Shown piece by piece: positions 6,476 to 30,791 of a stretch of DNA of 32,000 nucleotides. The stretch is taken from contig JAGFND010000007.1 in assembly GCA_021409285.1 (NCBI GenBank), forward strand, positions 1-32,000, written 5' to 3'. The notes under the pieces are model-generated. The model did no database searches, was not told where the DNA came from, and saw only the letters and a list, made by a program, of their open reading frames with translations. Source of the DNA: Candidatus Methanoperedens sp. (GTDB lineage Archaea > Halobacteriota > Methanosarcinia > Methanosarcinales > Methanoperedenaceae). Every line of letters begins with the position of its first letter. Position 1 is the first letter of the stretch. The position numbers and the translations under genes were made by a program.

Positions 6476-6917
6476 AACTAACCTCCGTCTCGATCGCGAC
6501 CTGTTTTTCAACTTTAGTGCCGGGCATTACCCATGATTGGCATTTCTATATCATCCTGAACTTACGAGATTACCACGTAGGTTTAGAAAATGATCACTCG
6601 TTTTACTCTCCATCTAATATGTATGACATTAATGGCATTTATATATGTTGATTGGGGCATTGCCCCCCAATGACAATGAAGTACGGCGGCGACTCACACG
6701 TTTTGGCTCCAATGTACCGAAATATTTAAAAGAGAGAGGTTCTAATTAAGAAACGGCAGCCCGCACTTTCGGCAATAGATTCTTTATTCCGGATGGAAGA
6801 GGATGCAGATCTTACAATATGCCTTCATACCTTAGGTCAAAACATTGGAAAGGCTATGAGAGATAAGATGAAAGAAAGTGAATACCTTATGTTCATGCTG
6901 ATTGAAGAGGTTGCGAG

Positions 6918-7676: not shown

Positions 7677-8790
7677 AATGGATTTAAAAAAGGAAATCAG
7701 GAAATCCTGGGTAATTATGATCAAGGAGTTCAGGCAGATTATCAGGAAAAAAGCCTTCATGATCCCGATGTTTATGTTCCCAATAGTCATGATCGTCTTT
7801 TTCGGCTACGGGATGGGCGGCACTGTCAAGAACGCCGACGTTCTTATCGTCAATGACGACACAGGTATAGCCTCAAGCTCCCTCGTTCAGGAAATCGGAA
7901 GCTTCATCCCCAAATACGGCGATGACAAAATGTTCTCGATAACTTACACGAAGGATATGGGGCAATCAGAAGCTGAGAGGAAAATAGATTCTGGGTTGTA
8001 TAAAGCAATCCTGATCATCCCACAGGATTATAGCGAGCGCGTGGCAAGAAATGAGAGCGTGACCCTGACGCTTCTGACTGACTCCTCGGACACCTCATCA
8101 AGCAGCATAATCATTAATTTTATGAAGCAGTTATTTTCAGGAACGTCGAGTTCGCTTGTTACGTTGAAAATTCCTGATATTTACGGCAAGCTACAGTATA
8201 TTGACTTCCTCACACCTGCAGTTATTGCCCTTACAGTGTTCATGGGTACTATTCAGACCATGGGTTATGCAATAGCAGGAGAGCGGCAGGACGGCACATT
8301 GGTTCGTATTATGATGACACCTGTGAGCAGGGGAGCCATTATTCTCGGTAAAACCTTACATCAGCTTGTATTGCAGCTTGCCAGAGCTGTGGTGCTGATA
8401 ATCGGAGCAATTGTTATTCTCGGGGTCACCATGAACGGAAGCTGGTTGCTTGTGGCTCTGGTGCTTATAATCTTCACTTTAAGCGCAGTAGGTCTTGGAA
8501 TGGCTATCTCTGCCGTATCAGAGGACATGACCTCTTTTCAGGCGATAAGCATGTTAATCGCCTTTCCTTCCATGTTTGCCACGGGTGTTTTCTATCCGTT
8601 AAGCTCGGTTCCTGACTGGATGCGCTGGATAGCGTATATGGTGCCTCTGAGTTATGCTAACGATGCAATGCGAACCATCATGATAAAGGGACTGGGTTTG
8701 AGCTTTATAGCTAATGATTTGATAATACTTGCTTTATTTGCGATCTTTTATTTCGCTTTGGGGGTCTATCTATTTAGGAGGGAAGTATAA
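7669..8790 (+). CDS. ABC-2 type transporter permease
   Basis: 373 aa with one N-terminal TM helix, a ~150-aa loop, then a C-terminal bundle of about five hydrophobic helices, which is typical ABC-2 architecture. It overlaps the ATPase gene by 8 nt. ATG at 7678 is an alternative start. Confidence 0.85.
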   Translation: MIEMDLKKEIRKSWVIMIKEFRQIIRKKAFMIPMFMFPIVMIVFFGYGMGGTVKNADVLIVNDDTGIASSSLVQEIGSFIPKYGDDKMFSITYTKDMGQSEAERKIDSGLYKAILIIPQDYSERVARNESVTLTLLTDSSDTSSSSIIINFMKQLFSGTSSSLVTLKIPDIYGKLQYIDFLTPAVIALTVFMGTIQTMGYAIAGERQDGTLVRIMMTPVSRGAIILGKTLHQLVLQLARAVVLIIGAIVILGVTMNGSWLLVALVLIIFTLSAVGLGMAISAVSEDMTSFQAISMLIAFPSMFATGVFYPLSSVPDWMRWIAYMVPLSYANDAMRTIMIKGLGLSFIANDLIILALFAIFYFALGVYLFRREV

Positions 8791-8792
8791 GA

Positions 8793-9785
8793 ATGAGAAT
8801 GAAAAAAAACTGGATTGCCTTTTTCATGCTGGTTGTTCTGGCAATAGGCGTCGCCGCAGGCGCCGATACCCCAAGCACATATAACGTGCCCAGAAGCTTT
8901 GATTTTGCGACAAATTACTATAATGCATTCGGCAGCCCGGATATTAATGCTACTATTATGGGCACAAATGAATTCGACAGGGACGAGACTATTACTTTAT
9001 ATGTTGACTTAATGAACCGGGGCAAATTTTTAGGATTTGAGAGAGACCATACCCCTACAACTGCTGATGAAATATATGCCGCCCAGACCGAAGTGAAGCT
9101 TGAAGGGAGGATAGTTGACGCAACCGGCATAATTGCATCGCTCTCTGTTGATCCGGATAGCCCGCTTGAAGTCAAGTCTCCTGCCCAGCAGGTAGGTTCC
9201 ATAAATAGCGGGCAGAAGGTGCTTTCTCCGGTAAAATTCGATATAAAAATCGCCAAGAAAGCAAAGGCTGGCGTATATAATCTCACCTTGAATCTCACCT
9301 ATGATTACCAGAAATTTGTGTCGATATCGAATACAAATGCAACCGCGCAAACATACGATGCAAGCTATTGGTACGGGATGATGGCTCAAAACCAGACCCT
9401 GAAAATGAAGGTAAAAACGCAGGCAGATTTCGAGGTCGTGCGAACCACAGGAAGTTTTTACGCAGGAAGGGAAGACATTGTTGAGATAGCGATTAAAAAT
9501 ACGGGAGAGGAAGAAGCGAAAGATGCCAGGGCAATAATCAACCCGTCTGACCCTCTTAGCACCACAGATGACCAGGCGTTCCTCTATACTATAAAGCCAG
9601 GCGATACTGTAGTTGCCACCTATAAAATCAAGGCAGATAGCAAGGCTGTACCTAAAACCTATGCGGTAGACACCGTTATAAGATACGAAAACCCGGACGG
9701 GGATATCAAATATTCAACCATCCTGCAGGCGCCGGTGGATGTAAAGGAATTGGGCTTCTTCCAGAGATTGTTCGGATTGGTTTAG
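8793..9785 (+). CDS. Secreted beta-sandwich (COG1361 / CARDB-like S-layer-domain) protein, third gene of the ABC-2 operon
   Basis: N-terminal signal peptide MRMKKNWIAFFMLVVLAIGVAAGA. Two repeat-like blocks resemble the 'vtNtGtatA' type (AGVYNLTLNLTYDY; IAIKNTGEEEAKDARAIINP). The start lies 2 nt after the permease stop. The family call is from memory of similar operons in Methanosarcinales. Confidence 0.55.
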   Translation: MRMKKNWIAFFMLVVLAIGVAAGADTPSTYNVPRSFDFATNYYNAFGSPDINATIMGTNEFDRDETITLYVDLMNRGKFLGFERDHTPTTADEIYAAQTEVKLEGRIVDATGIIASLSVDPDSPLEVKSPAQQVGSINSGQKVLSPVKFDIKIAKKAKAGVYNLTLNLTYDYQKFVSISNTNATAQTYDASYWYGMMAQNQTLKMKVKTQADFEVVRTTGSFYAGREDIVEIAIKNTGEEEAKDARAIINPSDPLSTTDDQAFLYTIKPGDTVVATYKIKADSKAVPKTYAVDTVIRYENPDGDIKYSTILQAPVDVKELGFFQRLFGLV

Positions 9786-9846
9786 AGGGCACCAGCCAGT
9801 GCCATCATTGTCATTCAGTATCAACACACCCGGTTATTTCTCTTCT

Positions 9847-11103
9847 TCAAGATGACAGCAATTTCCCCAGGAACTTCGTGTACATCACAAGATCCTCTAT
9901 CAATATGTTCTCGTCATCCGAATGCGTATTGCTCTGTGTTCTTCTTCCTATGCCGTAGCAGCACGCGGGCAGTCCCGTTACTTTTACCGCATAAGCCACA
10001 TCAAGGCTTCCCTGCGCACCTGCAAGGCTCACATCCCTTCCGGCCACATCATCCGCAACGCTTTTGACTTTATTCACCCATGGATGCTTCATATCAGTAA
10101 GCAATGGAGCATATATCTCATCGCAGCTCCATTTAAGGATAATATCAGGATGTTCTTTCCTGACTTTTGAAAGCGCATCAATGAATTCCTTTCTGACATC
10201 ATCGTAATTCTCTTCGGGGATGAATCTCCTGTCCCCTTTCAGCGTGCATCGATCAGGCACTACGTTCTGTTTTACTCCTCCGTTTATCATGGTTATATTC
10301 AGGACAGGCATCAGTGTCTTTATCCCGGTCATCCTGCTTATCGCCATACTTGCCGGTACTTTAGAACGCTTTTTCTCGATATTTGCCTTCAATTCCATTA
10401 ATTCATTCATGACCGGGATGGATTTCTCTATTGCGTTTATGCCAAGAAAACTGCTCCCGCTGTGATATGATCTCCCGATAACATCCACCTGCCAGTCCAC
10501 ATTCCCGTTCGAAGCTATAGTGATGTCATCGCTGTCCCCATCCATGCTCAGGAAATAATCCGCTTCAAGTTTACCCAGGTCAGCAAAATAACACAATCCC
10601 GAATAAGGCCCCATCTCTTCATCGGTTGTAAGAGCGATATTGAGGTTGAAATTCGGTTTGATATCAAGTTCTGACATCGCAGATAGCAATGTAATAAGAG
10701 CAGCAACGCCTCCCTTTGAATCAGCCACTCCGCGGCCGTATATACGCCCATCTTTAACAGTGCATTCAAAAGGCGGGACAGTCCAGTTCGGACTTGCGGG
10801 AACAACATCAAGATGCGTGTTGATCAGAAGGGTTTTTTCCGCCCCGACATCCAGTTTTGCCGATAAGTTCGCACGATCTCCCGTAAGATGCAAAAGACGG
10901 GGATTTTTCTTCTCGAATAATTCGCGAGGCATAACAATCGTCTCAACTTGAAACCCAAGTTCTTCAAGATTCCTTCCTGCAAGTTCCATGGCTCTCATGT
11001 AATTTTCACCCGGCGGCACAGCGGTCTGGATGCGTACAAGGCCATCAAGTGTTCTTATTGTCTCATCGGTTCTGGAGTCAAGATATTCTAATAACGCCTT
11101 CAT
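9847..11103 (-). CDS. M20-family metallopeptidase (ArgE/DapE-like deacylase)
   Basis: Metal-ligand blocks NTHLDVVP, GRGVADSKGG and TTDEEMG. The track ORF extends to 11172. MKALLEYLDS... (ATG at 11103) matches the usual family N-terminus and removes the overlap with the divergent GTPase gene. Confidence 0.85.
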   Translation of the reverse strand: MKALLEYLDSRTDETIRTLDGLVRIQTAVPPGENYMRAMELAGRNLEELGFQVETIVMPRELFEKKNPRLLHLTGDRANLSAKLDVGAEKTLLINTHLDVVPASPNWTVPPFECTVKDGRIYGRGVADSKGGVAALITLLSAMSELDIKPNFNLNIALTTDEEMGPYSGLCYFADLGKLEADYFLSMDGDSDDITIASNGNVDWQVDVIGRSYHSGSSFLGINAIEKSIPVMNELMELKANIEKKRSKVPASMAISRMTGIKTLMPVLNITMINGGVKQNVVPDRCTLKGDRRFIPEENYDDVRKEFIDALSKVRKEHPDIILKWSCDEIYAPLLTDMKHPWVNKVKSVADDVAGRDVSLAGAQGSLDVAYAVKVTGLPACCYGIGRRTQSNTHSDDENILIEDLVMYTKFLGKLLSS

Positions 11104-11165
11104 TATGCTTAAAAAAGTCGTTTTTACCCAAATGCTTTTTGCCTCGCTTACAGGTATTAGACCCG

Positions 11166-12257
11166 ATGGCACTGGAAGAAGACATAAGGTCTATTGAAGA
11201 AGAAATATCTAAAACGAAATACAACAAGGCTACCGAAGGTCATATCGGGCGCCTGAAGGCCAAACTTTCACGATTAAGAGACGAAGTTCAAAAAAGAGCT
11301 TCTGCAAAAACAGGCGGTGAAGGTTTTTCTGTAAGAAAATCCGGTGATGCGTCTGTTGTACTGGTAGGATTCCCATCCGTTGGCAAAAGCACGCTTCTGA
11401 ATAGTCTGACAGGAACAGAATCAGCGGTTGCTGCTTATGAATTCACCACTCTTTCAGTTGTACCAGGTACACTTACGCATAAAGGAGCCACTATCCAGAT
11501 CCTCGATGTACCCGGTATCCTGAGGGGTGCCGCTTCAGGAAGAGGTCGAGGCAAAGAAGTACTTGCGGTCGTAAGGAATGCGGATTTAGTAATAATTATG
11601 CTTGATGTTTTCCAGCTTGTCCATTATGATGTTCTTTTCCAGGAACTTTTTGAAGCTGGAATTCGAGTCAATTCAAGGCCTCCAGAAATGACGATCAGAA
11701 AAAAACCAAGAGGGGGGATAATGATCAATAGCACAGTAGATCTGGGACTTGATGAAGATACGATAAAGTCGGTAATGGGAGAATACAGGATACATAATGC
11801 AAATGTAGTGATACGTGAAAATATCAGCATCGACCAGTTAATAGATGCAATACTTGGAAACAGAAAATATATTCCTGCCGTCGTTGTGATCAATAAGATC
11901 GATCTTGCAGATGAATATGCGATAAGGGCATGTAGAGAAAAATTCCCGGAAGCACTCCTTGTTTCAGCAGACAAGAAAGTCCATATCGAAGAACTCAAGG
12001 AGAGACTTTATGAAAAACTTGGGTTTATTAGGATATTTATGAAGCCGCAGGGGAAGGCTGCCGATCTGGAAGAACCCATGATAATAAGATATGGCGCCAC
12101 GGTCGGGGATGTATGCGACAGGCTTCACCGTGATTTCAGGAAAAGGTTCAGGTATGCGCAGATATGGGGTTCATCGGCAAAACATGAAGGACAGCGTGCC
12201 GGGCTCGACCATTCCATGGAGGATAATGATATCCTGACGCTTGTGCTGAGGAAATGA
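11166..12257 (+). CDS. DRG/Rbg-type developmentally regulated GTP-binding protein (OBG-HflX-like, C-terminal TGS-like domain)
   Basis: G1 GFPSVGKST, G3 DVPG, G4 NKID. The N-terminus MALEEDIRSIEEEISKTKYNKATEGHIGRLKAKL is typical of DRG. The track ORF start at 11049 is an upstream extension overlapping the M20 gene. Confidence 0.9.
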   Translation: MALEEDIRSIEEEISKTKYNKATEGHIGRLKAKLSRLRDEVQKRASAKTGGEGFSVRKSGDASVVLVGFPSVGKSTLLNSLTGTESAVAAYEFTTLSVVPGTLTHKGATIQILDVPGILRGAASGRGRGKEVLAVVRNADLVIIMLDVFQLVHYDVLFQELFEAGIRVNSRPPEMTIRKKPRGGIMINSTVDLGLDEDTIKSVMGEYRIHNANVVIRENISIDQLIDAILGNRKYIPAVVVINKIDLADEYAIRACREKFPEALLVSADKKVHIEELKERLYEKLGFIRIFMKPQGKAADLEEPMIIRYGATVGDVCDRLHRDFRKRFRYAQIWGSSAKHEGQRAGLDHSMEDNDILTLVLRK

Positions 12258-12261
12258 TAAT

Positions 12262-12699
12262 ATGAAAACCCATGAGGGCAGATTTATTCCAGAAACCCCG
12301 CTATTAACGGTCGATGCCCTGATATTATATGAAGGAAAACTTGTCCTTATCAGGCGCCTTAACCCTCCATTCAAAGATCATTTTGCACTTCCGGGGGGAT
12401 TTGTGGAGGTGGGGGAAACAGTTGAAGCTGCGGTTGTGCGTGAAGCAAAAGAGGAAACAGGGCTTGATATAACTCTTTTGAAGATAGCAGGCGTGTATTC
12501 TGACCCTTCACGCGATCCGAGAGGCCATATTGTTTCTATTTGTTTCCTTGCAAAAGGGAGTGGAAAGCTTAAAGCAGGTTCGGATGCAAAAGATATAATG
12601 CTTTTTGGTTTGAATGAAATACCCAGAATAGCATTTGACCATAATATGATCATAGAGAACTCAAAGAGTGATATAAATGGAATTCTGTCCGAAATGTAA
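12262..12699 (+). CDS. NUDIX hydrolase
   Basis: Nudix box GGFVEVGETVEAAVVREAKEETGL (GX5EX7REUXEEXGU). The start lies 4 nt after the GTPase stop. Confidence 0.85.
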   Translation: MKTHEGRFIPETPLLTVDALILYEGKLVLIRRLNPPFKDHFALPGGFVEVGETVEAAVVREAKEETGLDITLLKIAGVYSDPSRDPRGHIVSICFLAKGSGKLKAGSDAKDIMLFGLNEIPRIAFDHNMIIENSKSDINGILSEM

Positions 12700-12979
12700 A
12701 AGCATGATGATGCCTGCAAAAAACATTTATAAATGCAGGAAATGCGGGTTTGAAAAAAATATCAAGGAAGGTTTTGTTTCAAAGACCCAAAGGAATGAAC
12801 GTGAAGTAACAGTGCTGGAACAGCGGGAGATGGGGCTTCCCACGGCTCGCCAGAGATGTGAAGATTGTGGAAATGACACAGCGTACTGGTGGCTGCGGCA
12901 GCTTCGTTCAGCAGATGAAAGTGAGGTCAGATTCTTCAGGTGCACAAAATGCGGTAAGACCTGGCGAGAGTACAATTGA
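12677..12979 (+). CDS. tfs: Transcription factor S (TFS; TFIIS / RNAP subunit M family)
   Basis: N-terminal zinc ribbon CPKC...CRKC and C-terminal zinc ribbon CEDC...CTKC. The acidic hairpin RSADESEVRFFRCTKCGKTWREY is characteristic of TFS/TFIIS domain III. Confidence 0.9.
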   Translation: MEFCPKCKSMMMPAKNIYKCRKCGFEKNIKEGFVSKTQRNEREVTVLEQREMGLPTARQRCEDCGNDTAYWWLRQLRSADESEVRFFRCTKCGKTWREYN

Positions 12980-13182
12980 TAAGCCTGAACCTGGCAAACC
13001 CATTCTGAATTATTTATTTAAACGATTAATTATTATATAACGGCCATTAAAAATCACAAATTATTTAAGGCATCAGAATAAGAGTATTGATGTGACCATA
13101 ACAGGAAAAACGGGAAAAAACGGGGTCAATTAACAAAATCAGGATAGGAACAACATAAAATGATTCCGTGAGGTAATTTAAA

Positions 13183-14139
13183 ATGTTTCCCAAAAAGAAT
13201 AGCACAGCTTTTCCATTGAAAAAGAAACTTGTATTGATCTCAATCACAATGTTTTTTCTTCTGGCCGCAATAGTCTCAGCGCAGAAGGACGTATCCTGTT
13301 ATCACTGCCATACAGGAGTTGTATCGGAATTCAGAAATAATATTCACTATCAGATGGGTTTCACATGTGAAAATTGCCACGGAGGAAATATTCAATCAAA
13401 TACCTCTGTTGTATCCGCGAATGTAATGTCAGGAGATTTTATCGGCCGCCCATCCAGGCAAGATATAACCAATGTCTGCTCAAAATGCCATGAAAAGGAA
13501 ACAAAGGATTACAAGCAGAGCATCCACTGGGAACAGATCGAAAAAGGTCATCTTGAAGCTGCGACCTGTACCGATTGCCATGGAATACATGAGATCCGCG
13601 CAGTATCTGATAACAAATCATCTTCAAACCATCAGAACAGTCCGGCCACATGTGCAAAATGCCATTCCAACAAAGAAATGATGAGCGCATGGTACTATGG
13701 TATAAAGACAGATCGGATGGACACATATAAAGAATCTTTCCACTGGAAAGCACTTGAGAACGGATATAATGTGGTGGCGACGTGCGCCGATTGTCATAAC
13801 AACCACAATACAAAATCACATGATGATCCGCAATCAAGCACATATCCGGACAACCTGCCAAAAACATGTGGAAAAGCGAACTGCCATCCTGATGTCAAAT
13901 TTGACGCAAAAATAGCAGCCGGCCTTGTCCATGATAAGGAATCACTGCATACGGGAGAACTCATATTCAACAAGACCGGAATCGACCCATTGATAAAGTC
14001 ATATTATCTTGGTCCTTTTGACCTTGCATACTGGATTGCATTATTTTTCAAGATATTGACAACAGGTGTAATAGGCGTCTTTACAGGTATGGTGCTTCTT
14101 GACCTGTTCTCGCATTTCAAGGTACAGAAGAGATGGTAG
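13183..14139 (+). CDS. Membrane-anchored multihaem c-type cytochrome (6 CXXCH + 1 CX4CH)
   Basis: Haem motifs CYHCH, CENCH, CSKCH, CTDCH, CAKCH, CADCH, plus CGKANCH. It has an N-terminal signal/anchor (LVLISITMFFLLAAIVSAQ) and a C-terminal TM helix (WIALFFKILTTGVIGVFTGMVLLDLF). GAGGT lies upstream of the ATG. Confidence 0.9.
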   Translation: MFPKKNSTAFPLKKKLVLISITMFFLLAAIVSAQKDVSCYHCHTGVVSEFRNNIHYQMGFTCENCHGGNIQSNTSVVSANVMSGDFIGRPSRQDITNVCSKCHEKETKDYKQSIHWEQIEKGHLEAATCTDCHGIHEIRAVSDNKSSSNHQNSPATCAKCHSNKEMMSAWYYGIKTDRMDTYKESFHWKALENGYNVVATCADCHNNHNTKSHDDPQSSTYPDNLPKTCGKANCHPDVKFDAKIAAGLVHDKESLHTGELIFNKTGIDPLIKSYYLGPFDLAYWIALFFKILTTGVIGVFTGMVLLDLFSHFKVQKRW

Positions 14140-14142
14140 ATC

Positions 14143-14892
14143 ATGTCCAGATCCAGGCAGATAGAAGTTACGATCACTGAGGAATTTTCAGGAGAAAATA
14201 CAATGAGTGAGGTTTATTTCAAGAGATTTACATTCAATCAACTCGTACAGCACTGGGTTATGATAGGCAGTTTCATGGTTCTTGTAGTAACTGGAATGCC
14301 GGTCAAATTCCCGGACACATGGTGGTCGCCTGTAATAATCAATATGGTTGGCGGATTTGAAATGAGGACGCAGTTGCACCATGCAGCAGGTATCGGAATG
14401 GTCATTCTTGGCCTGTGGCATGTCGGATATCATGTTTTCGTGGATAAGGAATCGCTGCTTGATCGTAAGGTGTGGCCAACAATAAAGGATGCAAAGGATT
14501 TCTGGCAGACAATATTATTCTACTTTAGAAAAGCGGAACATCCGAAATTCGGGAGATATTCATGGAAAGAGAAATTTGACTACTGGGGCGCTTTCTGGGG
14601 AATGGTAATGCTGTGCGTCACTGGACTCATAATGCTCTTCCCGTTCACTGCAATGAACTATATTCCTTATGCATATGTGCATCTTTCAACCATCATTCAT
14701 ACAGATGAAGCATTGCTTGCGACACTATTCATCTTCATAGTCCACTGGTGGAATGTCCATTACAGTCCGGAATCGTTCCCCATGTCAAAAACATGGCTTA
14801 CAGGGAACCTTTCAGAAACGCAGATGAAACATGAACATCCGCTTGAGTATGAAGAGGCAATGAGACAGATACGTGAAAAGGATGAACATTAA
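14143..14892 (+). CDS. b-type cytochrome membrane subunit (FdnI / Ni-Fe-hydrogenase cytochrome b-like)
   Basis: Four to five TM helices carry conserved-looking His residues (QHWVMIG; HHAAGIGMVILGLWHVGYH; IIHTDEALLATLFIFIVHWWNVH). The start lies 3 nt after the cytochrome c stop. The alternative start ATG 14203 has AGGAG 9 nt upstream. Confidence 0.7.
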   Translation: MSRSRQIEVTITEEFSGENTMSEVYFKRFTFNQLVQHWVMIGSFMVLVVTGMPVKFPDTWWSPVIINMVGGFEMRTQLHHAAGIGMVILGLWHVGYHVFVDKESLLDRKVWPTIKDAKDFWQTILFYFRKAEHPKFGRYSWKEKFDYWGAFWGMVMLCVTGLIMLFPFTAMNYIPYAYVHLSTIIHTDEALLATLFIFIVHWWNVHYSPESFPMSKTWLTGNLSETQMKHEHPLEYEEAMRQIREKDEH

Positions 14893-15419
14893 CACTTTCC
14901 GATCAGATGATTTTTCTTGAGGTTTTCAAATACCTCTGTTCCTTTTTTCGTCAGAATAAACTTCTTCCAGGTTCTTTTCCCGGGAGTCAGGGACTGAATC
15001 AGCCCGCGCTCTTCCAGTTCCCGCATTGCATAACTGATATTCTGCAATGATCTCTCAGTGGAATCTGCTATATCCGATGCCTGTATCATCCTCTTTTCGT
15101 GCATCATTTTTAATACGATCAGTCTTCTATCCACTCCCACAACCCACATTGATAGCCCATCTAAATTGACTACCCCCAGAATAAATAATTTAAACAGTTC
15201 TGTATTTGAATCATATGAGCATTCAAATTTATCCTGGATTTTTTCCTCTTGGGATTGCTGTTGCTGCAATGAAATACCTTCAAGGTCGACACAGGGCTTA
15301 TTAGTTTGAAATTCACTTTTTGAGGGGAGAGGCATTATGGCTACAATCGAAAATAAAACTAATGATAATATGACTACCAGGATTCGTAAGGTTTTATTAG
15401 GTCGTTCATTATCCTTCAT
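14889..15419 (-). CDS. Membrane-anchored winged-helix (MarR/ArsR-like) transcriptional regulator
   Basis: The C-terminal ~70 aa looks like a wHTH (MIQASDIADSTERSLQNISYAMRELEERGLIQSLTPGKRTWKKFILTKKGTEVFENL). There is an N-terminal TM helix (LRILVVILSLVLFSIVAIM), then a Q-rich, Cys-containing linker. Its stop codon overlaps the cytochrome b stop in a TTAA (14889-14892). Confidence 0.6.
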   Translation of the reverse strand: MKDNERPNKTLRILVVILSLVLFSIVAIMPLPSKSEFQTNKPCVDLEGISLQQQQSQEEKIQDKFECSYDSNTELFKLFILGVVNLDGLSMWVVGVDRRLIVLKMMHEKRMIQASDIADSTERSLQNISYAMRELEERGLIQSLTPGKRTWKKFILTKKGTEVFENLKKNHLIGKC

Positions 15420-15485
15420 ACTATTTACGTGAATTCTTTTTCCATCGTATTATGTTTTCCCCAATACAATCTAAATTCTTTTTAT

Positions 15486-15563
15486 CTTTAAAAATTAAAT
15501 TATCTATAATTAATAATAACTTATCACAAATTAGAAAGATTTATAATATTTAAGAATTATAGG
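15486..15563. promoter_or_regulatory. Divergent promoter cassette, copy A (between the wHTH regulator and small ORF 1)
   Basis: It contains TATAATTAATAA (15505-15516) and CACAAATTAGAAAGATTTATAA (15525-15546, a BRE/TATA-like AAAGATTTATAA). Both blocks recur at 15880-15891 and 15900-15921. Confidence 0.5.
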
Positions 15564-15618
15564 TTTATCAAACATGTTCATCGTAACATGGTGATTAATC
15601 TTTAAAAAAGGAGAATTT

Positions 15619-15729
15619 ATGGATAAATTGATTGAAATGCTCATTGGACCAGCAATGTTTTTAGTATTGGCAGGAATCTTCTATCTTGTGATAGAATTGA
15701 GAATTAGAATGCTCAAGTGTAGGGGTTAA
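15619..15729 (+). CDS. Small ORF 1: 36-aa single-TM peptide (MDKLIEMLIGPAMFLVLAGIFYLVIELRIRMLKCRG)
   Basis: Not in the track because it is under 60 aa. The ATG is preceded by TTTAAAAAAGGAG with 5-nt spacing. It lies ~70 nt downstream of the copy-A TATA-like box and has a hydrophobic core with a basic C-terminus. Confidence 0.35.
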   Translation: MDKLIEMLIGPAMFLVLAGIFYLVIELRIRMLKCRG

Positions 15730-15847
15730 TTATTCTTGCGATGAGGTTTTTAATTACCCCTGTTCCTTTTTTCGTGTATCGATTTTAATTTTTATCAGAA
15801 TACGGCCCAGCTCTGCTGCCGTTATAACGTTTGACCCTATCACCCAT
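15730..15847 (-). pseudogene. Decayed remnant of a second copy of the wHTH regulator gene
   Basis: 15733-15805 aligns with the 3' end of the intact regulator gene (14913-14958). There is an identical 16-mer CTGTTCCTTTTTTCGT at 14936-14951 and 15760-15775, followed by CAGAATA after a 20-nt insertion. The minus-strand translation gives ...RAGPYSDKN*NRYTKKGTGVIKNL versus ...ERGLIQSL..ILTKKGTEVFENL, with an in-frame stop and deletions. Confidence 0.5.
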
Positions 15848-15851
15848 TCTT

Positions 15852-15940
15852 CCTTTAAATTTAAAAGAATAAAATTATATATAATTAATAACAAGTTAGC
15901 ACAAATTAGAAAGATTTATAACATTTAGTAATTATTGACC
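15852..15940 (+). promoter_or_regulatory. Promoter cassette, copy B (drives small ORF 2 / mtrD-like operon)
   Basis: Shares a 22-nt identical core CACAAATTAGAAAGATTTATAA (15900-15921) and TATAATTAATAA (15880-15891) with copy A. The same TTTAAAAAAGGAG ribosome-binding context follows at 15986-15998. Confidence 0.5.
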
Positions 15941-16007
15941 ATTGAACAGCCATCAATAATGTTGATTCTCTATGATGATAACTGTTTAAAAAAGGAGGAA
16001 ACATTAC

Positions 16008-16166
16008 ATGAAATCTGAAATTGTATCCATTTCAAATCAAAATTTAAGAGCAGCCAAATCAGACCTTATGAATGGTATCGATAGTTTCTCACTGCTTTCA
16101 AGCATCTGGACTGAAATCAGGAACGACAGAGACAAATCAAAAATAAGGAAAAAAGGAGTGAATTGA
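16008..16166 (+). CDS. Small ORF 2: 52-aa soluble basic-tailed protein (MKSEIVSISNQNLRAAKSDLMNGIDSFSLLSSIWTEIRNDRDKSKIRKKGVN)
   Basis: Not in the track. AGGAGG lies 9 nt upstream of the ATG. Its stop at 16164-16166 is 1 nt before the ATG of the MtrD-like gene, and its own 3' end supplies the AAGGAG Shine-Dalgarno for that gene. Confidence 0.45.
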   Translation: MKSEIVSISNQNLRAAKSDLMNGIDSFSLLSSIWTEIRNDRDKSKIRKKGVN

Positions 16167-16167
16167 A

Positions 16168-16899
16168 ATGGTGGATATTTTACTACTTGATCCGACGACA
16201 TTAACAAATATACTTTTAATAGCCATCAGCGGCACTCTTATTTGCCTGGGTGTGCATTTTGTGCCGGTCGGGGGAGCCCCAGCGGCAATGGCACAGGCGA
16301 CCGGTATAGGAACAGGTACTGTGGAACTTGCGGCAGGTTCGGGACTTGTGGGTTTGATAACATCGGCTTATATGTATGCAAATGCTCCCAATCCAACAAT
16401 GGCTTTAGTACTGGCTGCAGGAGCTACAGGTTCAATGATAATGATAGCAAGCACAATGCTTGCAGGAAATTTGGTTTATGGTTATGGCGTAGGGGTGCCT
16501 TTCGCTTCTGCCCAGATTAAAAAAGACCCCATTACAGGCGAACGCCAGGATACTTATATGTCAAAAGGAACACAGGGTCAGGGAATTCCAACCATATGTT
16601 ATGTAAGCGGCATTATCGGGGCGGCGCTGGGCGGAACAGGAGGTGCTCTTATTTATTATGTTCTGATAGGTATATACGGCCAGTTGATAAGTACAACAAG
16701 TGCAGTTGCAGTTGCGGGCGTATTCACAATGGGTGTTTTCTATGTAAATGCCGTTGTTCCGTCTTATGGTGTGGGCGGAACAATAGAAGGATTCCATGAC
16801 CCCAAGTTCAGGCGGGTTCTACCAAAAGATGCTTTCACAAGTTTTCTTGTAAGTCTTGTTTTAGGTATCGTGGCAATACTGATAACAGTAGGGATGTAG
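16168..16899 (+). CDS. mtrD: MtrD-family integral membrane protein (tetrahydromethanopterin S-methyltransferase subunit D paralogue), encoded outside an mtr operon
   Basis: 243 aa, Gly/Ala-rich and polytopic. The blocks HFVPVGGAPAAMAQATGIGTGT, GQGIPTICYVSGIIGAALGG and GGTIEGFHDPKF are the ones I recognise from MtrD proteins. No mtrE/C/B/A/F/G/H flank it. Confidence 0.8.
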   Translation: MVDILLLDPTTLTNILLIAISGTLICLGVHFVPVGGAPAAMAQATGIGTGTVELAAGSGLVGLITSAYMYANAPNPTMALVLAAGATGSMIMIASTMLAGNLVYGYGVGVPFASAQIKKDPITGERQDTYMSKGTQGQGIPTICYVSGIIGAALGGTGGALIYYVLIGIYGQLISTTSAVAVAGVFTMGVFYVNAVVPSYGVGGTIEGFHDPKFRRVLPKDAFTSFLVSLVLGIVAILITVGM

Positions 16900-16926
16900 T
16901 ATTATCATCTGCGAGAAGGAGTAAAT

Positions 16927-16989
16927 ATGGTTATAGCTATAATCGCATTCGATAAGGGATCAAAATATGTTCTAAGGAGGTTACGATGA
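16927..16989 (+). CDS. Possible 20-codon micro-ORF (MVIAIIAFDKGSKYVLRRLR) coupled to the downstream transporter gene
   Basis: GGAG lies 5 nt upstream of ATG 16927. The stop TGA overlaps the ATG of the next gene (ATGA at 16986-16989). This could be coincidental, because the same stretch carries the AGGAGG SD of the downstream gene. Confidence 0.2.
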   Translation: MVIAIIAFDKGSKYVLRRLR

Positions 16990-18122
16990 GCCTTGAGTTT
17001 AGTTCAATGGTGGCAGGAGGATTAGGTATAATTTTCATTATCGTCTTGCTGGGTCCTTTTTTGACCAAAAAAATTGAACATAACCTTGAGGTATTCCTTT
17101 TCTCAATGGGCATACTGGCGGTGACGGTTAACTCTATTTTTCTGAAAGTATCATCCGAAGCTGGAGTAGCAGCAGAAGAGACTTTGCCAAACTGGAACTT
17201 GCATTTGATAGAAAAAGCACTTGTCGACCCTATCGAGATTTCGCTTGCCGTATTATTCGCAGGACTTGTTTTCCACTATGGGCGAGGGCACATCAGAAAA
17301 TTAATGGAAAAAATATTGGCCAGGATACCGCTAAAGATAGTAGTCTTTGCAGTTATCGCATTACTTGGCCTTCTCTCAAGCGTAATCACAGCCATCATCG
17401 CTGCGCTTTTGCTTGTTGAGATTGTCAGCGCATTGAGACTTGACCGCAAGACCATGGTGAACCTGACGATAATAGCATGCTTTGCCATTGGTCTTGGAGC
17501 AGCGCTTACTCCAATCGGTGAGCCTCTTTCCACGATAGTGATAAAGACAAAGATGAACGAGAGCTTCTTTTATCTTGTTGATCTGTTGGGCATATATATC
17601 ATACCCGGAGTGCTGGCATTTGGTATCATAGGTGTTTTCTTTGCTTATAGAAAAGAAATAAAAGCGCCTGCGGGAGAGATCGAAGCGACAGATGAAGGTC
17701 ATGAGAGCATAAACGATGTGCTGATCAGGGCAGCGAAAGTATATGTGTTCGTGATGGCACTTGTGCTTCTTGGAACAGGTTTTACGCCCATCATTGAGTG
17801 GTATGTTATAAAAATGTCCGGAGAAGCCCTTTACTGGGTGAATATGGTTTCAGCCATCCTTGATAATGCAACTCTTGCGGCTGCAGAGGTCGATCCTTCG
17901 ATGATCGTGCCGGGTCTGATTGATCCTGCTATCAAGATCAAGAGCGTTCTTATGGGATTGCTTGTATCAGGCGGTATGCTAATACCTGGCAATATACCAA
18001 ATATTATCTCAGCTAACAAGCTTGGGATCACAAGCAAGGAATGGGCAAGACTTGGAGTTCCTTTGGGTCTTGTAGCAATGCTGGTATTCTTTATAATTCT
18101 CTATGCGCCGAACTATATCTAA
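16986..18122 (+). CDS. Polytopic membrane protein, DUF1646-like predicted cation transporter
   Basis: 378 aa with ~10-11 hydrophobic helices. AGGAGG lies 6 nt upstream. Size, architecture and blocks such as LIPGNIPNIISANKLGITSKEWARLGVPLGL recall the archaeal DUF1646 family. That family call is from memory and needs an HMM check. Confidence 0.55.
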   Translation: MSLEFSSMVAGGLGIIFIIVLLGPFLTKKIEHNLEVFLFSMGILAVTVNSIFLKVSSEAGVAAEETLPNWNLHLIEKALVDPIEISLAVLFAGLVFHYGRGHIRKLMEKILARIPLKIVVFAVIALLGLLSSVITAIIAALLLVEIVSALRLDRKTMVNLTIIACFAIGLGAALTPIGEPLSTIVIKTKMNESFFYLVDLLGIYIIPGVLAFGIIGVFFAYRKEIKAPAGEIEATDEGHESINDVLIRAAKVYVFVMALVLLGTGFTPIIEWYVIKMSGEALYWVNMVSAILDNATLAAAEVDPSMIVPGLIDPAIKIKSVLMGLLVSGGMLIPGNIPNIISANKLGITSKEWARLGVPLGLVAMLVFFIILYAPNYI

Positions 18123-18150
18123 CAATTTATTAAACAATAATGAGAAAATA

Positions 18151-18294
18151 ATGATATGTAAACATTGTGGGCACACTGTTAGTATGGCAGGAGGCCTGTG
18201 CTTTCATACAGAGAATGGTTTCTCGCAAACCTGCAAGATATGTGGTTGCAGGTTTCCGGAACAAGATGAGGATCACATGGTGAACAATAAATGA
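18151..18294 (+). CDS. 47-aa zinc-ribbon peptide (MICKHCGHTVSMAGGLCFHTENGFSQTCKICGCRFPEQDEDHMVNNK)
   Basis: CxxC (C3, C6) and CxxC (C28, C31) pairs plus an acidic tail. I chose the ATG at 18151 within the 63-aa track ORF. It lies 28 nt after the transporter stop on the same strand. Confidence 0.5.
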   Translation: MICKHCGHTVSMAGGLCFHTENGFSQTCKICGCRFPEQDEDHMVNNK

Positions 18295-18310
18295 AAATAA
18301 AATTAATCAG

Positions 18311-18414
18311 TTATATAATATTTTTGTTTCTTCTAAAGGTTAGGCATCATAAAATTTTTTCAATTGAAAAAATTACTCCTAAACAATTGGTGTCTAACCG
18401 GAATTTGAAATAAC
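18311..18414 (+). promoter_or_regulatory. Repeated TATA + conserved-stem leader element, copy 1 (upstream of the tandem USP gene)
   Basis: Block A is TTATATAATATTTTTGTTTCTTCTAAAGGTTAGGCATCAT. Block B is ACTCCTAAACAATTGGTGTCTAACCGGAATTTGAAATAA. GGTTAGGCA (18338-18346) can pair with TGTCTAACC (18391-18399), giving 9 bp with one G-U. The element is near-identical to 19389-19494. Confidence 0.5.
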
Positions 18415-18504
18415 GATATTTCCTGATATTAAAATTGTGCAAATTTTAAAACCAGTAGATTGAAATACAAGAAATTAGTAAATAACGAGATATGGGAGGA
18501 TATA

Positions 18505-19377
18505 ATGTTCAATAAAGTTCTATTTCCGACAGATTTTTCAGCGAATGCGCATAAAACTCTTGAGTGTATTGGTGAGATTCCCGGTGTAAAAGAGGTAGTG
18601 CTTTTGCATGTTGTTGCAGTCCCCTCGGGTGTTTTCGATTCAAAGCATGGGTGGATTCAGGGACCGCATGTAGAGGATGCAAAGATTCGCCTGGAAGAAC
18701 ATAGAAAACATCTTGAAAGTCTTGGATTGAATGTCACTACAAAAGTAGATATAATAACGACTGGTGATATATCACAGGTCATCCTGGGGATTGCCGATAA
18801 AGAAAACGTTTCTTTAATCATAATGAACTCTCACGGAAAAAGCCTGATTAAAGGCCTGCTTCTTGGAAGTGTCCCACTCGATGTAATACGCCATGCAAAA
18901 ACAGATGTTTTGCTAATGCGTTATAAATTAGCGGAAAGTCTTGAAGGTGAAAAGTCAGAAAAGTTTTGTGAGAAGATTTTTTCAAAAGTGCTTCACCCAA
19001 CTGATTTCTCAGAGCCTGCCGGAATGGCGTTATCCTTTGTAAAAAATCTGCAGGGAATTGAAGAAATCGGACTGGTGCATGTGGTTACTAAAGGTGAGAC
19101 AGATGATGAGATAAAGGCCAATGTACAGGAGGCAAAAAAGAAGCTTGAGGATATCAAGCTTGAACTTAGCGGTGCAGATTTTAAAGTGAAAGATTACGTC
19201 CGCGTAGGAAGCCCGGCAGAGGAAATTTGCTCTGTGGCCGAGGATGAAGATGCCTCGATGATAGCGATGAGTTCTCATGGAAAAGGTTGGCTCAAAGAAT
19301 TATTATTAGGTGACACGACCTTCGATGTGGTCAAAAATACAAAGATACCTGTTCTGGTTGTGAGAGCTAAGAAATGA
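18505..19377 (+). CDS. Tandem universal stress protein (two UspA domains)
   Basis: Two repeats of the USP pattern are present (KVLFPTDFS...LLHVV...NSHGKSLIKGLLLGSVPLDVIRHAKTDVLLMR and KVLHPTDFS...LVHVV...SSHGKGWLKELLLGDTTFDVVKNTKIPVLVVR). The ATG at 18505 is preceded by GGGAGG. The track start at 18460 is an upstream TTG. Confidence 0.9.
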   Translation: MFNKVLFPTDFSANAHKTLECIGEIPGVKEVVLLHVVAVPSGVFDSKHGWIQGPHVEDAKIRLEEHRKHLESLGLNVTTKVDIITTGDISQVILGIADKENVSLIIMNSHGKSLIKGLLLGSVPLDVIRHAKTDVLLMRYKLAESLEGEKSEKFCEKIFSKVLHPTDFSEPAGMALSFVKNLQGIEEIGLVHVVTKGETDDEIKANVQEAKKKLEDIKLELSGADFKVKDYVRVGSPAEEICSVAEDEDASMIAMSSHGKGWLKELLLGDTTFDVVKNTKIPVLVVRAKK

Positions 19378-19388
19378 GATAATGGCTA

Positions 19389-19494
19389 TTATATAATATT
19401 TTTATTTTTTCTAAAGGTTAGGCATCATTAAGATTAAGTCGAGTGCCAACAAACTCTTAAACAATTATGGTGTCTAACCGGAATTTAAATAAAA
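19389..19494 (+). promoter_or_regulatory. Repeated TATA + conserved-stem leader element, copy 2 (abuts the start of the DUF1614-like gene)
   Basis: It has the same two blocks as copy 1, with 2 substitutions in block A and, in block B, 2 substitutions and a 2-nt AT insertion. The stem arms are at 19416-19424 and 19471-19479. The ~25-nt segment between the blocks is unrelated in the two copies. Confidence 0.5.
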
Positions 19495-20187
19495 ATGTTT
19501 GCAAAGTTGGTTGAATTGTCTTATCAAATATTTCCAAGGATCAGAACCTCAGTTATTGCTTTCTCGTTTTTAATCCTCGTGTTGGTTTTCATATTTATAT
19601 GCTTGAATATCTCAGGCACTGCTTTCAAGAAACTGGGATTTCCTCCAGAATATTCGGTCTATTTTCTTTTTTTGTCACTGCCTTGCAGTTACTTAAACAT
19701 TCCCATTAAAAAGGTCAGGTCGCGCGTCTCCGTGATTTCAGACAAAGCAAGTTATACTCTAAAGTCGGGTTTGTCAGCTTCATCTCTTAAAATGTACAGT
19801 ACAATAGCTATTAACATAGGAGGCGCAGTTATTCCGATAATAATGTCAGTATTTCTGTCCACAAAGGCAAATCTGGTTGAAATCTTATCAGGAATTCTTG
19901 TCATGACGATAATTATTCATAAGATTGCTCGACCTGTGAAAGGTTCTGGGATCTTGATCCATGCGTTGCTTCCTCCGTTTCTGACGGCTTTTATTGCAAT
20001 TATTATCTCTCCTCAAAATGCACCTGTTATCGCCTACATCTCAGGCACATTTGGCTGCATTCTTGGCATCGACATACTCAACCTGAAAAAAATCCCCGAC
20101 CTTGGCGTGCCATTTGTTTCTATTGGCGGAGCAGGGACATTTGATGCAATATTCCTGACTGGTATAATATCTGTGCTCCTGGCATAG
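19495..20187 (+). CDS. Integral membrane protein, DUF1614-like
   Basis: 230 aa with ~6 hydrophobic segments. Blocks such as INIGGAVIPIIMS and GGAGTFDAIFLTGII recall the archaeal DUF1614 family, a call made from memory. There is no SD, and the ATG directly follows the conserved leader. Confidence 0.5.
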   Translation: MFAKLVELSYQIFPRIRTSVIAFSFLILVLVFIFICLNISGTAFKKLGFPPEYSVYFLFLSLPCSYLNIPIKKVRSRVSVISDKASYTLKSGLSASSLKMYSTIAINIGGAVIPIIMSVFLSTKANLVEILSGILVMTIIIHKIARPVKGSGILIHALLPPFLTAFIAIIISPQNAPVIAYISGTFGCILGIDILNLKKIPDLGVPFVSIGGAGTFDAIFLTGIISVLLA

Positions 20188-25923: not shown

Positions 25924-27366
25924 TCAATTCAATCGAATGACCACTTCACACAATTTATCCCCGTGAGAGATCAATTTATTGATCTCCAATTGCGCCATAT
26001 TACCGAATGCATAATTCAAAGCTCCTTTGAAAGCTTCTCTTGATGTTTGACAAATACATTTGTCAAATTTGTTCCCGTCAGTGGCTATATGGCATTTCCT
26101 CACAGTATATAGCAGATTTTTTCCCTCTAATTTCCATTCACTTTCGGTATGGATTCTTGAATTTATAATCTCAAAAACAGTTTTAAATGTTTCCAGATCC
26201 CAGTTCTTGATTCCATTTTCCTTTTCATATTCATGCATTAACGATGTTCCGATCTTTCGCCCCAAAGCTGTAAAAGATAATGTAATATCAGGAATGTTCT
26301 TTAATCCTTCTAAGAATGTCATGAACATCAGCAATTCCTGGTCGAAACTGGTTTTGCTCACTATTAGATTATCAACAATTTCATTGACTTTTATGCCTAC
26401 ATCGGGTCTGTGGGTCAATACGATCATATTTGCTGTTGTTTTTGGATCGAACAAATGGCCATTTGCCTCCAAGAGCAAGACAAGTGTTTTTTTTATCTTT
26501 TCAATTGCTTCATTAGACCTGTAACTGTGAAAAATAATTAAATTATCATTATCGATATCCACCTTGTCAATTACCCTGGAGGTTTCATAAACCTCTTTTA
26601 TCAATGAAAGCATCTCTTTTAATGGTATCTCCTGTATTGGTTTTTTTGCCAGGTTTTCTATACTTATTTCACCTAGCGGTATATTATTGGAAAGCAGATC
26701 TTCAAAAAAATTCCTGTGAACAGTGACCATATTATAATTACTTAAAAGGTGTCTTTTTACTATTGCCTTCCAGAAATCAGGGCGGCTCTTTATTCCTCTT
26801 ATCACTTCATCCATTCCCCCAAAAAAAGTAAGCAGGCTGTTTACGGCCTCTTTTTTAGTAGATCTGGCCAGTTCAACTTTGATACATTCATTAAAATTAA
26901 AAACAGACATTATCTCAAGGGGGATTTTTTCAAGAGAATTTTTCACCAAATATTGTGACAATATGCGAGCAACAGTCCGTATCTTTTTAAATTCCCCCCT
27001 TATTTCCAATAACATTCCTGAGGGAAATGTATCATTATCATATTTAAATTCAATATTAATATTCCATTCAAGATCCCTGAATCTGCAGTTAAGACAATTT
27101 TCCAGTTTCCTTATCGAATTGATCAACATCGGGTCTATTAATTCATCCAGTACGTTGTCTGGAATAAGGGTACCTTCGACCTCTGTTAACATCCAATTAA
27201 AAAGGGAATTATCTATTGCCGAAGAATTATCCGGGAAAAAGGATTTCCCGTTACGATCTATTATCTCTCTGATTGCTGCGCTGAAGTTTCCATTATGCTT
27301 CTCAAGTTGAGGTTTTAATTTCTCAACACAATCTTTGTCGATTGATATATGCTTTGTTACGATCAT
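25924..27366 (-). CDS. Hypothetical 480-aa protein: N-terminal ribbon-helix-helix-like segment, unknown central region, C-terminal V4R-like domain
   Basis: The N-terminus MIVTKHISIDKDCVEKLKPQLEKHNGNFSAAIREIIDR fits a strand-helix-loop-helix RHH pattern. The C-terminus ...YTVRKCHIATDGNKFDKCICQTSREAFKGALNYAFG...ISHGDKLCEVVIRLN resembles V4R (4-vinyl reductase) small-molecule-binding domains. The gene is visibly AT-rich. Confidence 0.5.
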   Translation of the reverse strand: MIVTKHISIDKDCVEKLKPQLEKHNGNFSAAIREIIDRNGKSFFPDNSSAIDNSLFNWMLTEVEGTLIPDNVLDELIDPMLINSIRKLENCLNCRFRDLEWNINIEFKYDNDTFPSGMLLEIRGEFKKIRTVARILSQYLVKNSLEKIPLEIMSVFNFNECIKVELARSTKKEAVNSLLTFFGGMDEVIRGIKSRPDFWKAIVKRHLLSNYNMVTVHRNFFEDLLSNNIPLGEISIENLAKKPIQEIPLKEMLSLIKEVYETSRVIDKVDIDNDNLIIFHSYRSNEAIEKIKKTLVLLLEANGHLFDPKTTANMIVLTHRPDVGIKVNEIVDNLIVSKTSFDQELLMFMTFLEGLKNIPDITLSFTALGRKIGTSLMHEYEKENGIKNWDLETFKTVFEIINSRIHTESEWKLEGKNLLYTVRKCHIATDGNKFDKCICQTSREAFKGALNYAFGNMAQLEINKLISHGDKLCEVVIRLN

Positions 27367-30786: not shown

Positions 30787-30791
30787 TTTTT

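Follow-up and report, generated by a model that had tools for sequence, protein, structure and literature searches.

The 32-kb window analysed here, a stretch of chromosome from Candidatus Methanoperedens (anaerobic methanotrophic archaea of clade 2d, ANME-2d) whose positions are used for numbering throughout, carries an isolated copy of mtrD, the gene for a membrane subunit of Mtr, the Na+-translocating methyl-H4MPT:CoM methyltransferase, which catalyses the Na+-coupled step of methanogenesis. We refer to this gene as mtrD2. It lies in a compact run of genes that opens with a divergently oriented putative regulator and continues through a 36-aa micro-protein (p36), a short upstream open reading frame (ORF), mtrD2 itself, a micro-ORF, a DUF1646 membrane protein, a zinc-ribbon-like protein (Zn47), the remnant of a 43-aa peptide (p43), a tandem universal stress protein (Usp) and a DUF1614 membrane protein. 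The ORF map and the sequence reproduced every feature that a first-pass annotation of this DNA had recorded, namely ORFs of 52, 243, 20 (codons), 378 and 47 aa, together with their positions.

For comparison, one genome per GTDB species was scanned, yielding at least 80 loci that were sorted by tblastn; the presence and absence counts reported below are lower bounds. Loci L017 and L019-L052, together with all other Methanosarcinales in the scan, hold the canonical operon, and L005-L016, L018 and L053, plus L001-L004 from separate searches, carry mtrD only and are referred to as paralogue loci. L173 denotes contig Ga0172370_10001171, 40.8 kb in length.

MtrD2 is a complete MtrD encoded outside the mtr operon

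Positions 16168-16899 of the plus strand encode a full MtrD of 243 aa, as established by Pfam, NCBIfam and alignment with chains of known structure. The protein matches PF04207 MtrD over profile positions 2-217 of 217 (E 1.7e-83; 280.2 bits, cut-off 25) and the mtrD equivalog TIGR01112 at 280.5 bits (cut-off 126.85), and its alignment with MtrD from two solved structures, chains 9qtq_J (M. mazei) and 8q3v_D (M. marburgensis), covers the full length. Database annotations label the gene plainly as mtrD. A tblastn search of the window with all eight Methanoperedens Mtr subunits matched MtrD alone, bearing out the first-pass remark that no other mtr gene surrounds it, and the same type of search revealed no further mtr gene within ±8 kb at 16 paralogue loci, with L173 as the exception.

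Complete mtrEDCBAFGH operons are intact in 35 Methanoperedenaceae loci, paralogue loci carry mtrD alone, and both kinds of mtrD are present in at least eight metagenome-assembled genomes (MAGs). On L173 the two stand on a single contig: the mtrD2 module precedes mtrEDCBAFGH on the same strand (positions 8458-17745), separated from it by a 258-nt gap, with the two mtrD copies 3.3 kb apart and 74% identical. The order there is regulator, p36-like ORF, mtrD2, DUF1646, a decayed Zn47 that has lost its ATG, a p43-like ORF and DUF1614, the last directly before canonical mtrE. This arrangement is possibly the ancestral one; at the other 16 of the 17 loci examined, the window included, mtrD2 lies away from the mtr operon. 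A split mtr operon was considered and is ruled out, because relatives hold complete mtrEDCBAFGH plus the mtrD2 copy, both of them on the L173 contig; mtrD2 is a true paralogue. The gene order of the module recurs in at least 16 Methanoperedens genomes and is, for that reason, not a product of chance; Methanoperedens BLZ2 (NTMG01000031.1, around 34.2-38 kb) and FeB_1 are among the carriers.

No mtrC or mtrE was detected by tblastn near any paralogue locus, and no orphan mtrE was present among 80 metagenome loci (orphan mtrC had no genome-wide search), so that the partners of MtrD2 would be the canonical subunits. In the literature searched, we found no paper on a second mtrD in Methanoperedens or on a link between MtrD and DUF1646, and the main text of papers on salt and sulfide stress contains no mention of these genes.

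MtrD2 is an old paralogue with retained functional residues

MtrD2 shares 74-81% identity with canonical Methanoperedens MtrD. Neighbour-joining analysis (100 bootstraps) groups the paralogues into a single clade (84/100) that is nested in Methanoperedenaceae on short branches, with L039 and L051 branching outside. Synonymous divergence (dS) between mtrD and mtrD2 of the same genome amounts to 1.2-2.4, indicating that the duplication is old and that gene conversion has not acted on the pair. The ratio of nonsynonymous to synonymous divergence (dN/dS) is 0.077 within the paralogue clade versus 0.086 within canonical Methanoperedens MtrD; judged by these rates, purifying selection is equally strong on both copies. 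Per-site variability is correlated between the two groups (rho 0.65), and mean pairwise identity is 87% for MtrD2 versus 79% for canonical MtrD.

We then compared 15 paralogues with two reference sets, comprising 66 canonical Methanosarcinales MtrDs or 35 canonical Methanoperedens MtrDs. All 62 columns that are invariant in the broader set are identical in all 15 paralogues, and 92 of the 94 columns invariant in the narrower set are identical in the paralogues as well. Twelve columns discriminate MtrD2 from canonical MtrD, all of them by conservative changes, and MtrD2 has a fixed three-residue N-terminal extension (MVDIS).

The roles of individual residues (corrinoid, cluster loop, TM2 gate) were taken from published structures, in which helix 34-38 and loop 208-210 of MtrD bind the corrinoid and Gly47 lies in the loop that supports the Fe8S9C cluster. 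Every one of the 15 paralogues keeps the corrinoid-binding helix 34-38 (APAAM, Factor III), Thr46/Gly47 and loop 208-210 (GGT, GGTIEGFHDPKF), and Lys224 is likewise retained. MtrD2 agrees with canonical Methanoperedens MtrD, and not with that of M. mazei, at the positions where these two differ (Glu at Gln50, Gln at Glu131). Transmembrane (TM) helix 2, at residues 51-71 of the window protein, is the same in paralogue and canonical sequences except at residue 67, which is Ser in 35/35 canonical proteins and, among the 15 paralogues, Ala in 13, Gly in one and Ser in one. In this alignment, the Ser-to-Ala replacement at 67, near the outer end of TM2, is the sole systematic change at an otherwise invariant site.

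The module carries a copy of the mtr promoter and leader

Upstream of mtrD2 lie two related promoter regions. Copy B, which includes the 5′ untranslated region (15853-16007, plus strand), was delineated by alignment and by a profile of the mtrE promoter; it contains AATAACAAnnTAtCACAAAttAGAAAGATTTATAACA, the ATGGTGAT motif and the Shine-Dalgarno (SD) sequence AAGGAGG. Alignment of upstream regions identified AATAACAAnnTAtCACAAAttAGAAAGATTTATAACA as a conserved block of ~45 nt (15886-15935, with its copy at 15511-15560) that combines a B recognition element (BRE) and TATA box with a candidate operator, and the exact core motif is present in 17/17 paralogue loci. The mtrE-promoter profile, to which 33 loci contributed the 160 nt preceding canonical mtrE, matches every paralogue locus searched, with E values of 4e-13 to 3e-4 in 14/15 and of 0.15 in L009. 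The match begins at the TATA box and extends as far as the upstream-ORF ATG (window 15904-16010, E 3e-4). The mtrD2 module thus uses a copy of the mtr promoter, 5′ untranslated region and start codon, to which a module-specific upstream element has been added.

A palindromic operator, ATAACnnGTTAT, was seen in the window and rejected, as its second half is not conserved across loci; the whole block remains the candidate operator. Nowhere in the window does a sequence attain the gathering score of an Rfam family, and no riboswitch or other known RNA was detected in the leader. The association with Na+-responsive riboswitches that the first-pass annotation had noted for DUF1646 genes concerns a bacterial class and does not carry over to this locus.

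Copy A (15478-15618, plus strand), with ACAAATTAGAAAGATTTATAATA at 15526-15548, also comprises a promoter and 5′ untranslated region and is a tandem duplicate of copy B. When it is aligned with positions 15853-15997, identity is 83% across 83 nt and 85% in the 26 nt nearest the SD, and the two copies are 375-384 nt apart. The promoter motif occurs twice in the window, against an expectation of 0, and a second promoter copy is also found in L003, L004, L007, L010 and L014.

The putative regulator gene (14889-15419, minus strand; 176 aa) was assigned from an HTH_27 match, hydropathy and synteny. Two TM segments are predicted in its product, at residues 7-35 and 76-96, with a loop of ~40 residues and two Cys between them. 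Its C-terminal part is a predicted winged-helix DNA-binding domain that reaches 23.8 bits against the Pfam HTH_27 cut-off of 22.2; MarR, MarR_2 and ArsR/SmtB stayed below their cut-offs, and the PDB match, to 2eth, is weak (E 0.0099). A homologue with 57-82% identity lies upstream on the opposite strand at 14/14 paralogue loci having upstream sequence. The regulator is the obvious candidate to bind the module-specific upstream element. On its upstream side the regulator gene adjoins a cytochrome pair (13183-14892) that is also present in the source record. The pair consists of a 318-aa multihaem c-type cytochrome with several CxxCH motifs and, after a gap of 4 nt, a membrane protein resembling cytochrome b561.

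The 52-aa upstream ORF (16008-16166, plus strand), recognized by its conserved SD and ATG and by its occupying the position of mtrE, stops 1 nt before the mtrD2 ATG and contains the mtrD2 SD AAGGAGTG. Its own SD and ATG are conserved at 15/15 loci, and the frame is open to the mtrD2 ATG in all of them, even as its length ranges from 13 to 67 codons between conserved ends (MQSEI... and ...DGDTLKIRKKGVN). That the frame is kept open despite this variation in length argues for translation and for coupling to mtrD2. In the profile, the start codon of the ORF aligns with that of mtrE; its 3′ junction has no detectable homology to the 3′ end of mtrE. From its position and 5′ homology, the upstream ORF is probably an mtrE relic.

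Small proteins accompany MtrD2

Directly downstream of promoter copy A, positions 15619-15729 (plus strand) encode p36, a 36-aa single-TM micro-protein (MDKLIEMLIGPAMFLVLAGIFYLVIELRIRMLKCRG) that was recognized from homologues at other loci, and a hairpin with a T-run follows at ~15713-15775. Full-length homologues (64-83% identity) occur in L003, L004, L005, L007, L010 and L014, and L008 has an N-terminally shorter match (75% over 32 residues), giving eight loci in all with the window. By exact-motif search p36 lies downstream of promoter copy A at five loci; copy A was not found by exact motif at L005 and L008.

Between mtrD2 and the DUF1646 gene lies a 20-codon micro-ORF of uncertain status (16927-16989, plus strand), which is equipped with a separate GGAG and overlaps the ORF at 16986-18122 by ATGA. 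A similar ORF (M-V/I-I-x-I-I-x-F-D...), ending at or in the DUF1646 start, is present at 6/12 loci (the window, L004, L007, L008, L014 and L053) and absent from L005, L006 and L010 and from L003, L009 and L013, in which 4 nt separate the mtrD2 stop from the DUF1646 ATG.

Starting 28 nt after the transporter stop, Zn47 (18151-18294, plus strand) is a conserved 47-aa protein of the CxxC...CxxC type. A search of the protein database, where small ORFs are rarely called, yielded only three homologues, and tblastn on the fetched loci was used instead. Across paralogue loci Zn47 is 70-89% identical, with the consensus MICKHCGHT..MAGGxCFHTENGFSQTCKICGCRFPE; it is intact in 11/16 genomes and frameshifted in L008, and it directly follows mtrD2 where DUF1646 is missing (L011, L015 and L016). 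No PDB match at E≤10 was obtained other than generic zinc fingers, the chains of 9qtq included in the search. Besides the copy after DUF1646, L013 holds a second, diverged Zn47 (6881-7033; Cys17 to Trp) beside its regulator gene.

The last of the small proteins survives in the window as a remnant. Intact p43 (MKIEFIEKIKELGIG...WLIYNIFISSKG), a 43-aa single-TM peptide, follows Zn47 at 15 loci, L020 and L050 included, with an ATGA overlap in the loci examined (for example L004 and L050). Comparison with these intact forms shows that the window copy (18291-18413, plus strand) is broken by an out-of-frame internal deletion, and 12 aa of the p43 C-terminus, WLLYNIFIFSKG, recur as a separate fragment immediately behind the Usp gene (19383-19418). 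The two fragments suggest a rearrangement around Usp. At L020 and L050, a cassette without mtrD2 stands ~2.3 kb upstream of canonical mtrE. In L020 (4381-4875) the regulator and promoter precede Zn47-p43, with the opening five codons of the upstream ORF joined in frame to Zn47; in L050 (4588-4960) the regulator and promoter precede p43, and the tail of Zn47 alone is left. This cassette is either a deletion derivative or a pre-insertion state.

The module belongs to a cation-homeostasis neighbourhood

The 378-aa polytopic membrane protein encoded at 16986-18122 (plus strand) is a DUF1646 protein by its Pfam match (PF07854, E 2.3e-120; 402.6 bits, cut-off 21.4; profile positions 4-345 of 347), has ~9 hydrophobic segments and is a putative cation transporter. 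Its scores against CitMHS PF03600 (30.2 bits) and NhaD TIGR00775 (18.9 bits) fall below the respective cut-offs of 31.9 and 577. Neither sequence nor profile search returned a PDB relative, and an AlphaFold2 model based on a 35-sequence alignment was too poor for use (pLDDT 45.6). According to published predictions, the DUF1646 family includes Na+/H+ antiporters.

Orthologues with 77-100% identity follow mtrD2 in 12/16 genomes. The DUF1646 gene is missing from the operon, with mtrD2 kept, in the sister taxa L011 and L016 and in L015 and L018. The first-pass annotation had paired an MtrD paralogue with a DUF1646-like transporter and small accessory ORFs and had suggested cation handling, and the pairing holds: relatives also have a canonical mtrD, the transporter is a DUF1646 protein, both the pairing and the accessory ORFs recur, and the surrounding genes handle cations. 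Na_Ca_ex, Na_H_Exchanger, MscS and P-type ATPase genes occur in the neighbourhood of paralogue loci, and a DUF1646 paralogue (64-67% identity) is found in cation islands that lack mtrD and contain Na_H_Exchanger-TrkA, P-type ATPase, Na_Ca_ex, Usp and DUF1614. Another DUF1646 copy, the third and more distantly related (51-53% identity), lies just upstream of canonical mtrE on the same strand in L022 (5722-6873) and L033 (87-950), with a gap of ~140-185 nt, and L050 has a DUF1646 copy divergent from canonical mtrE. By gene content, the mtrD2 module thus belongs to a set of cation-homeostasis genes that recurs in the vicinity of mtr genes.

Downstream of the p43 remnant, the Usp gene (18460-19377, plus strand; likely start ATG 18505) encodes two universal stress protein domains in tandem (PF00582, E 1.6e-45). 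It is annotated as 290 aa in the source record and follows the module at most loci. The conserved module ends with the integral membrane protein DUF1614 (19495-20187, plus strand; PF07758, E 7.7e-48), which lies downstream in 9/16 genomes.

The window corresponds to contig JAGFNC010000013.1 of MAG GCA_021409295.1. Its remainder is ordinary archaeal chromosome, with thermosome, deoxyhypusine synthase, shikimate and cobalamin genes in addition to the cytochrome pair. At 1440-4745 a 1101-aa protein combines an alpha-amylase/maltogenic-amylase region with a C-terminal part that has a weak phosphotransferase (APH) match; it resembles a fusion of the trehalose synthase/maltokinase type and is preceded by a PfkB-family kinase gene. 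The ORFs at 25924-27366 (minus strand, 480 aa) and 30705-31757 (plus strand, 350 aa) have no Pfam match at E≤0.001.

Discussion

On balance, we lean towards MtrD2 being a Methanoperedens-specific, separately regulated MtrD isoform for the Mtr complex, expressed together with a cation-homeostasis module. During reverse methanogenesis in ANME-2d, Mtr runs in the Na+-consuming direction; in anaerobic methanotrophs the Na+ gradient has to power this step in reverse. The mtrD2 module would have originated when promoter, leader, mtrE start and mtrD were duplicated together as the 5′ part of the mtr operon, after which the mtrE copy would have shrunk to a short, translationally coupling upstream ORF and the mtrD2 copy would have gained an additional operator-like block upstream, adjoining the divergent, membrane-anchored winged-helix regulator. 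Release of the promoter by this regulator would lead to joint production of MtrD2, DUF1646 (in most species), Zn47 and p43, with the second promoter copy driving p36 and with Usp and DUF1614 downstream; judging from the surrounding genes, the inducing signal may be ionic, osmotic or redox.

The MtrD2 protein would then assemble with canonical MtrC, MtrE and MtrA and take the peripheral MtrD position in the MtrCDE globe. According to published structures, MtrD is peripheral in the Mtr complex and the stalk is contacted by MtrE only, and for these reasons MtrD is predicted to be exchangeable. The structures also identify MtrD TM2 as the one helix that moves when MtrA docks and that lines the predicted Na+ tunnel against MtrE TM5. 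Since TM2 is the proposed mobile gate of the Na+ path, loss of the Ser hydroxyl in this helix would retune Na+ gating or leak at the MtrD-MtrE interface; at the same time, DUF1646 would rebalance cytoplasmic cations.

Several points weigh against such an isoform. The entry of MtrD2 into Mtr is deduced solely from the retained interface and cofactor residues, and a canonical mtr operon in the genome of the window itself is expected from its closest relatives, L005 and L006 (92% identity), in which the canonical operon is present (L041 and L038). The differences between MtrD2 and MtrD are few and conservative, making a functional difference between the isoforms a proposal, and in the window copy a Ser directly precedes the replaced position (Ser66-Ala67) and may weaken the effect suggested here. 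Finally, the 4-nt spacing of the mtrD2 stop and DUF1646 start in L003, L009 and L013 is a coupling typical of physically interacting partners.

This last observation bears on the interpretation put forward by the first-pass annotation, in which an Mtr-derived membrane protein was recruited into a different membrane complex. MtrD2 would here act outside Mtr, in a Na+- or cation-handling complex with DUF1646, p36, Zn47 and p43, either gating or regulating the transporter or forming a homo-oligomeric channel. The mtrD2-DUF1646 order in 12 of the 16 genomes, with stop/start coupling or a bridging micro-ORF, speaks for it, as do three conserved small proteins, two of them single-TM, from the same promoter family or operon, and neighbours that handle cations (Na_Ca_ex, Na_H_Exchanger, MscS and P-type ATPase). 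A homo-oligomer is conceivable in that MtrC, MtrD and MtrE share one common ancestor and are arranged as a pseudo-trimer. However, all residues touching the MtrA corrinoid, the metallocluster and the vestibule are kept under strong purifying selection, which this interpretation leaves unexplained: the retained corrinoid, cluster and GGT-loop residues make sense only beside MtrC, MtrE and MtrA. DUF1646 was lost in four genomes (the sister taxa L011 and L016, and L015 and L018), yet mtrD2 stayed; DUF1646 paralogues occupy the same kind of cation island without mtrD; and the L173 module abuts mtrEDCBAFGH. Recruitment elsewhere is thus not supported by the 74-81% identity to canonical MtrD, the 62 of 62 invariant columns or the equal constraint on the two copies, and we regard it as unlikely. 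We give still less credence to its furthest-reaching form, in which MtrD2 has left Mtr altogether for a previously undescribed cation machine with DUF1646, p36, Zn47 and p43, or for a homo-oligomeric MtrCDE-like gate, under the control of a membrane-anchored transcription factor.

A more conservative possibility, which we consider doubtful, is that MtrD2 is equivalent to MtrD and serves only as extra supply, for example by replacing a damage-prone peripheral subunit or by adjusting stoichiometry during stress-induced Mtr assembly, with the DUF1646 linkage reflecting nothing but shared regulation. Near identity at all constrained sites, with few and conservative differences, would fit such a spare copy, as would the use of a copied mtr promoter and leader and the adjacent Usp and sensor-like regulator, which suit a stress response. 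A purely redundant gene, however, would be expected to be lost or homogenised, and MtrD2 instead stands apart as a clade of its own, saturated in dS, with MVDIS as a fixed N-terminal extension and a fixed Ser-to-Ala change at a site invariant in 35 canonical proteins, and it is more conserved (87% mean pairwise identity) than the canonical subunit (79%). As the evidence comes mostly from MAGs, the second mtrD might also be ascribed to strain mixing during binning or to mis-assembly. The probability of this is negligible: the presence of both copies on the L173 contig excludes an artefact of binning, the flanks of the paralogue are distinct in every case (in the window with the housekeeping genes for thermosome, deoxyhypusine synthase and shikimate dehydrogenase), dS between the copies exceeds 1, and the locus was recovered from independent NCBI, ENA, JGI and Logan assemblies.

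A separately regulated MtrD isoform within Mtr would be of interest for both Mtr energetics and ANME physiology. In structures published in 2024-2026, the gate of the proposed Na+ path is at MtrD TM2. Many Methanoperedens species conserve MtrD2, and within the gate helix a single fixed, otherwise invariant site sets it apart from the resident subunit, which would amount to a natural experiment on the tuning of Na+ gating and coupling. Three conserved micro-proteins and a membrane-bound regulator emerge as candidate accessories of Mtr or of ion homeostasis in a group relevant to methane mitigation. If MtrD2 works with DUF1646 instead, this would offer a first functional handle on an uncharacterised transporter family.

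Comparison with known systems

MtrD2 shares family, length and six-TM layout with canonical MtrD (M. mazei 9qtq/9qts, M. marburgensis 8q3v), and differs from it by a promoter copy of its own, to which a further block is added upstream, and by a neighbouring regulator gene. Whereas canonical mtrD follows mtrE and precedes mtrC, mtrD2 follows a short ORF and precedes DUF1646 and the small proteins.

The accessory proteins MtrI (MM_2401) and MtrR of M. mazei, of ~50-70 aa and one with a zinc ribbon, are products of genes outside the mtr operon; they bind to MtrCDE or MtrA and modulate the enzyme. Zn47 resembles them as a small, Cys-rich, ribbon-like protein beside mtrD, and by analogy Zn47, p36 or p43 might bind Mtr. 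Zn47 was considered as MtrI or MtrR itself and ruled out as either: MtrI has ~65-68 aa, with an N-terminal 15-residue zinc ribbon and four helices, compared with the 47 aa of Zn47; the Methanoperedens homologues of MtrI are separate proteins of 65-66 aa, 41-47% identical to MM_2401; and MtrR is restricted to Methanosarcina.

Genes under the bacterial Na+-I (DUF1646 motif) riboswitch belong to the same family as the transporter described here, which also stands among Na+/Ca2+, Na+/H+ and K+-related genes. The window DUF1646 is unlike them in being archaeal, in having no Rfam riboswitch match and in lying behind mtrD under an mtr-type promoter. A further parallel is provided by the McrI and McrII isoenzymes of methanogens, in which a paralogous core catabolic enzyme is placed under separate regulation. 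In that case a whole enzyme was duplicated, whereas MtrD2 represents the duplication of one peripheral membrane subunit; its novelty is that of a subunit paralogue with its own regulation and partners, and not that of a new class of system.

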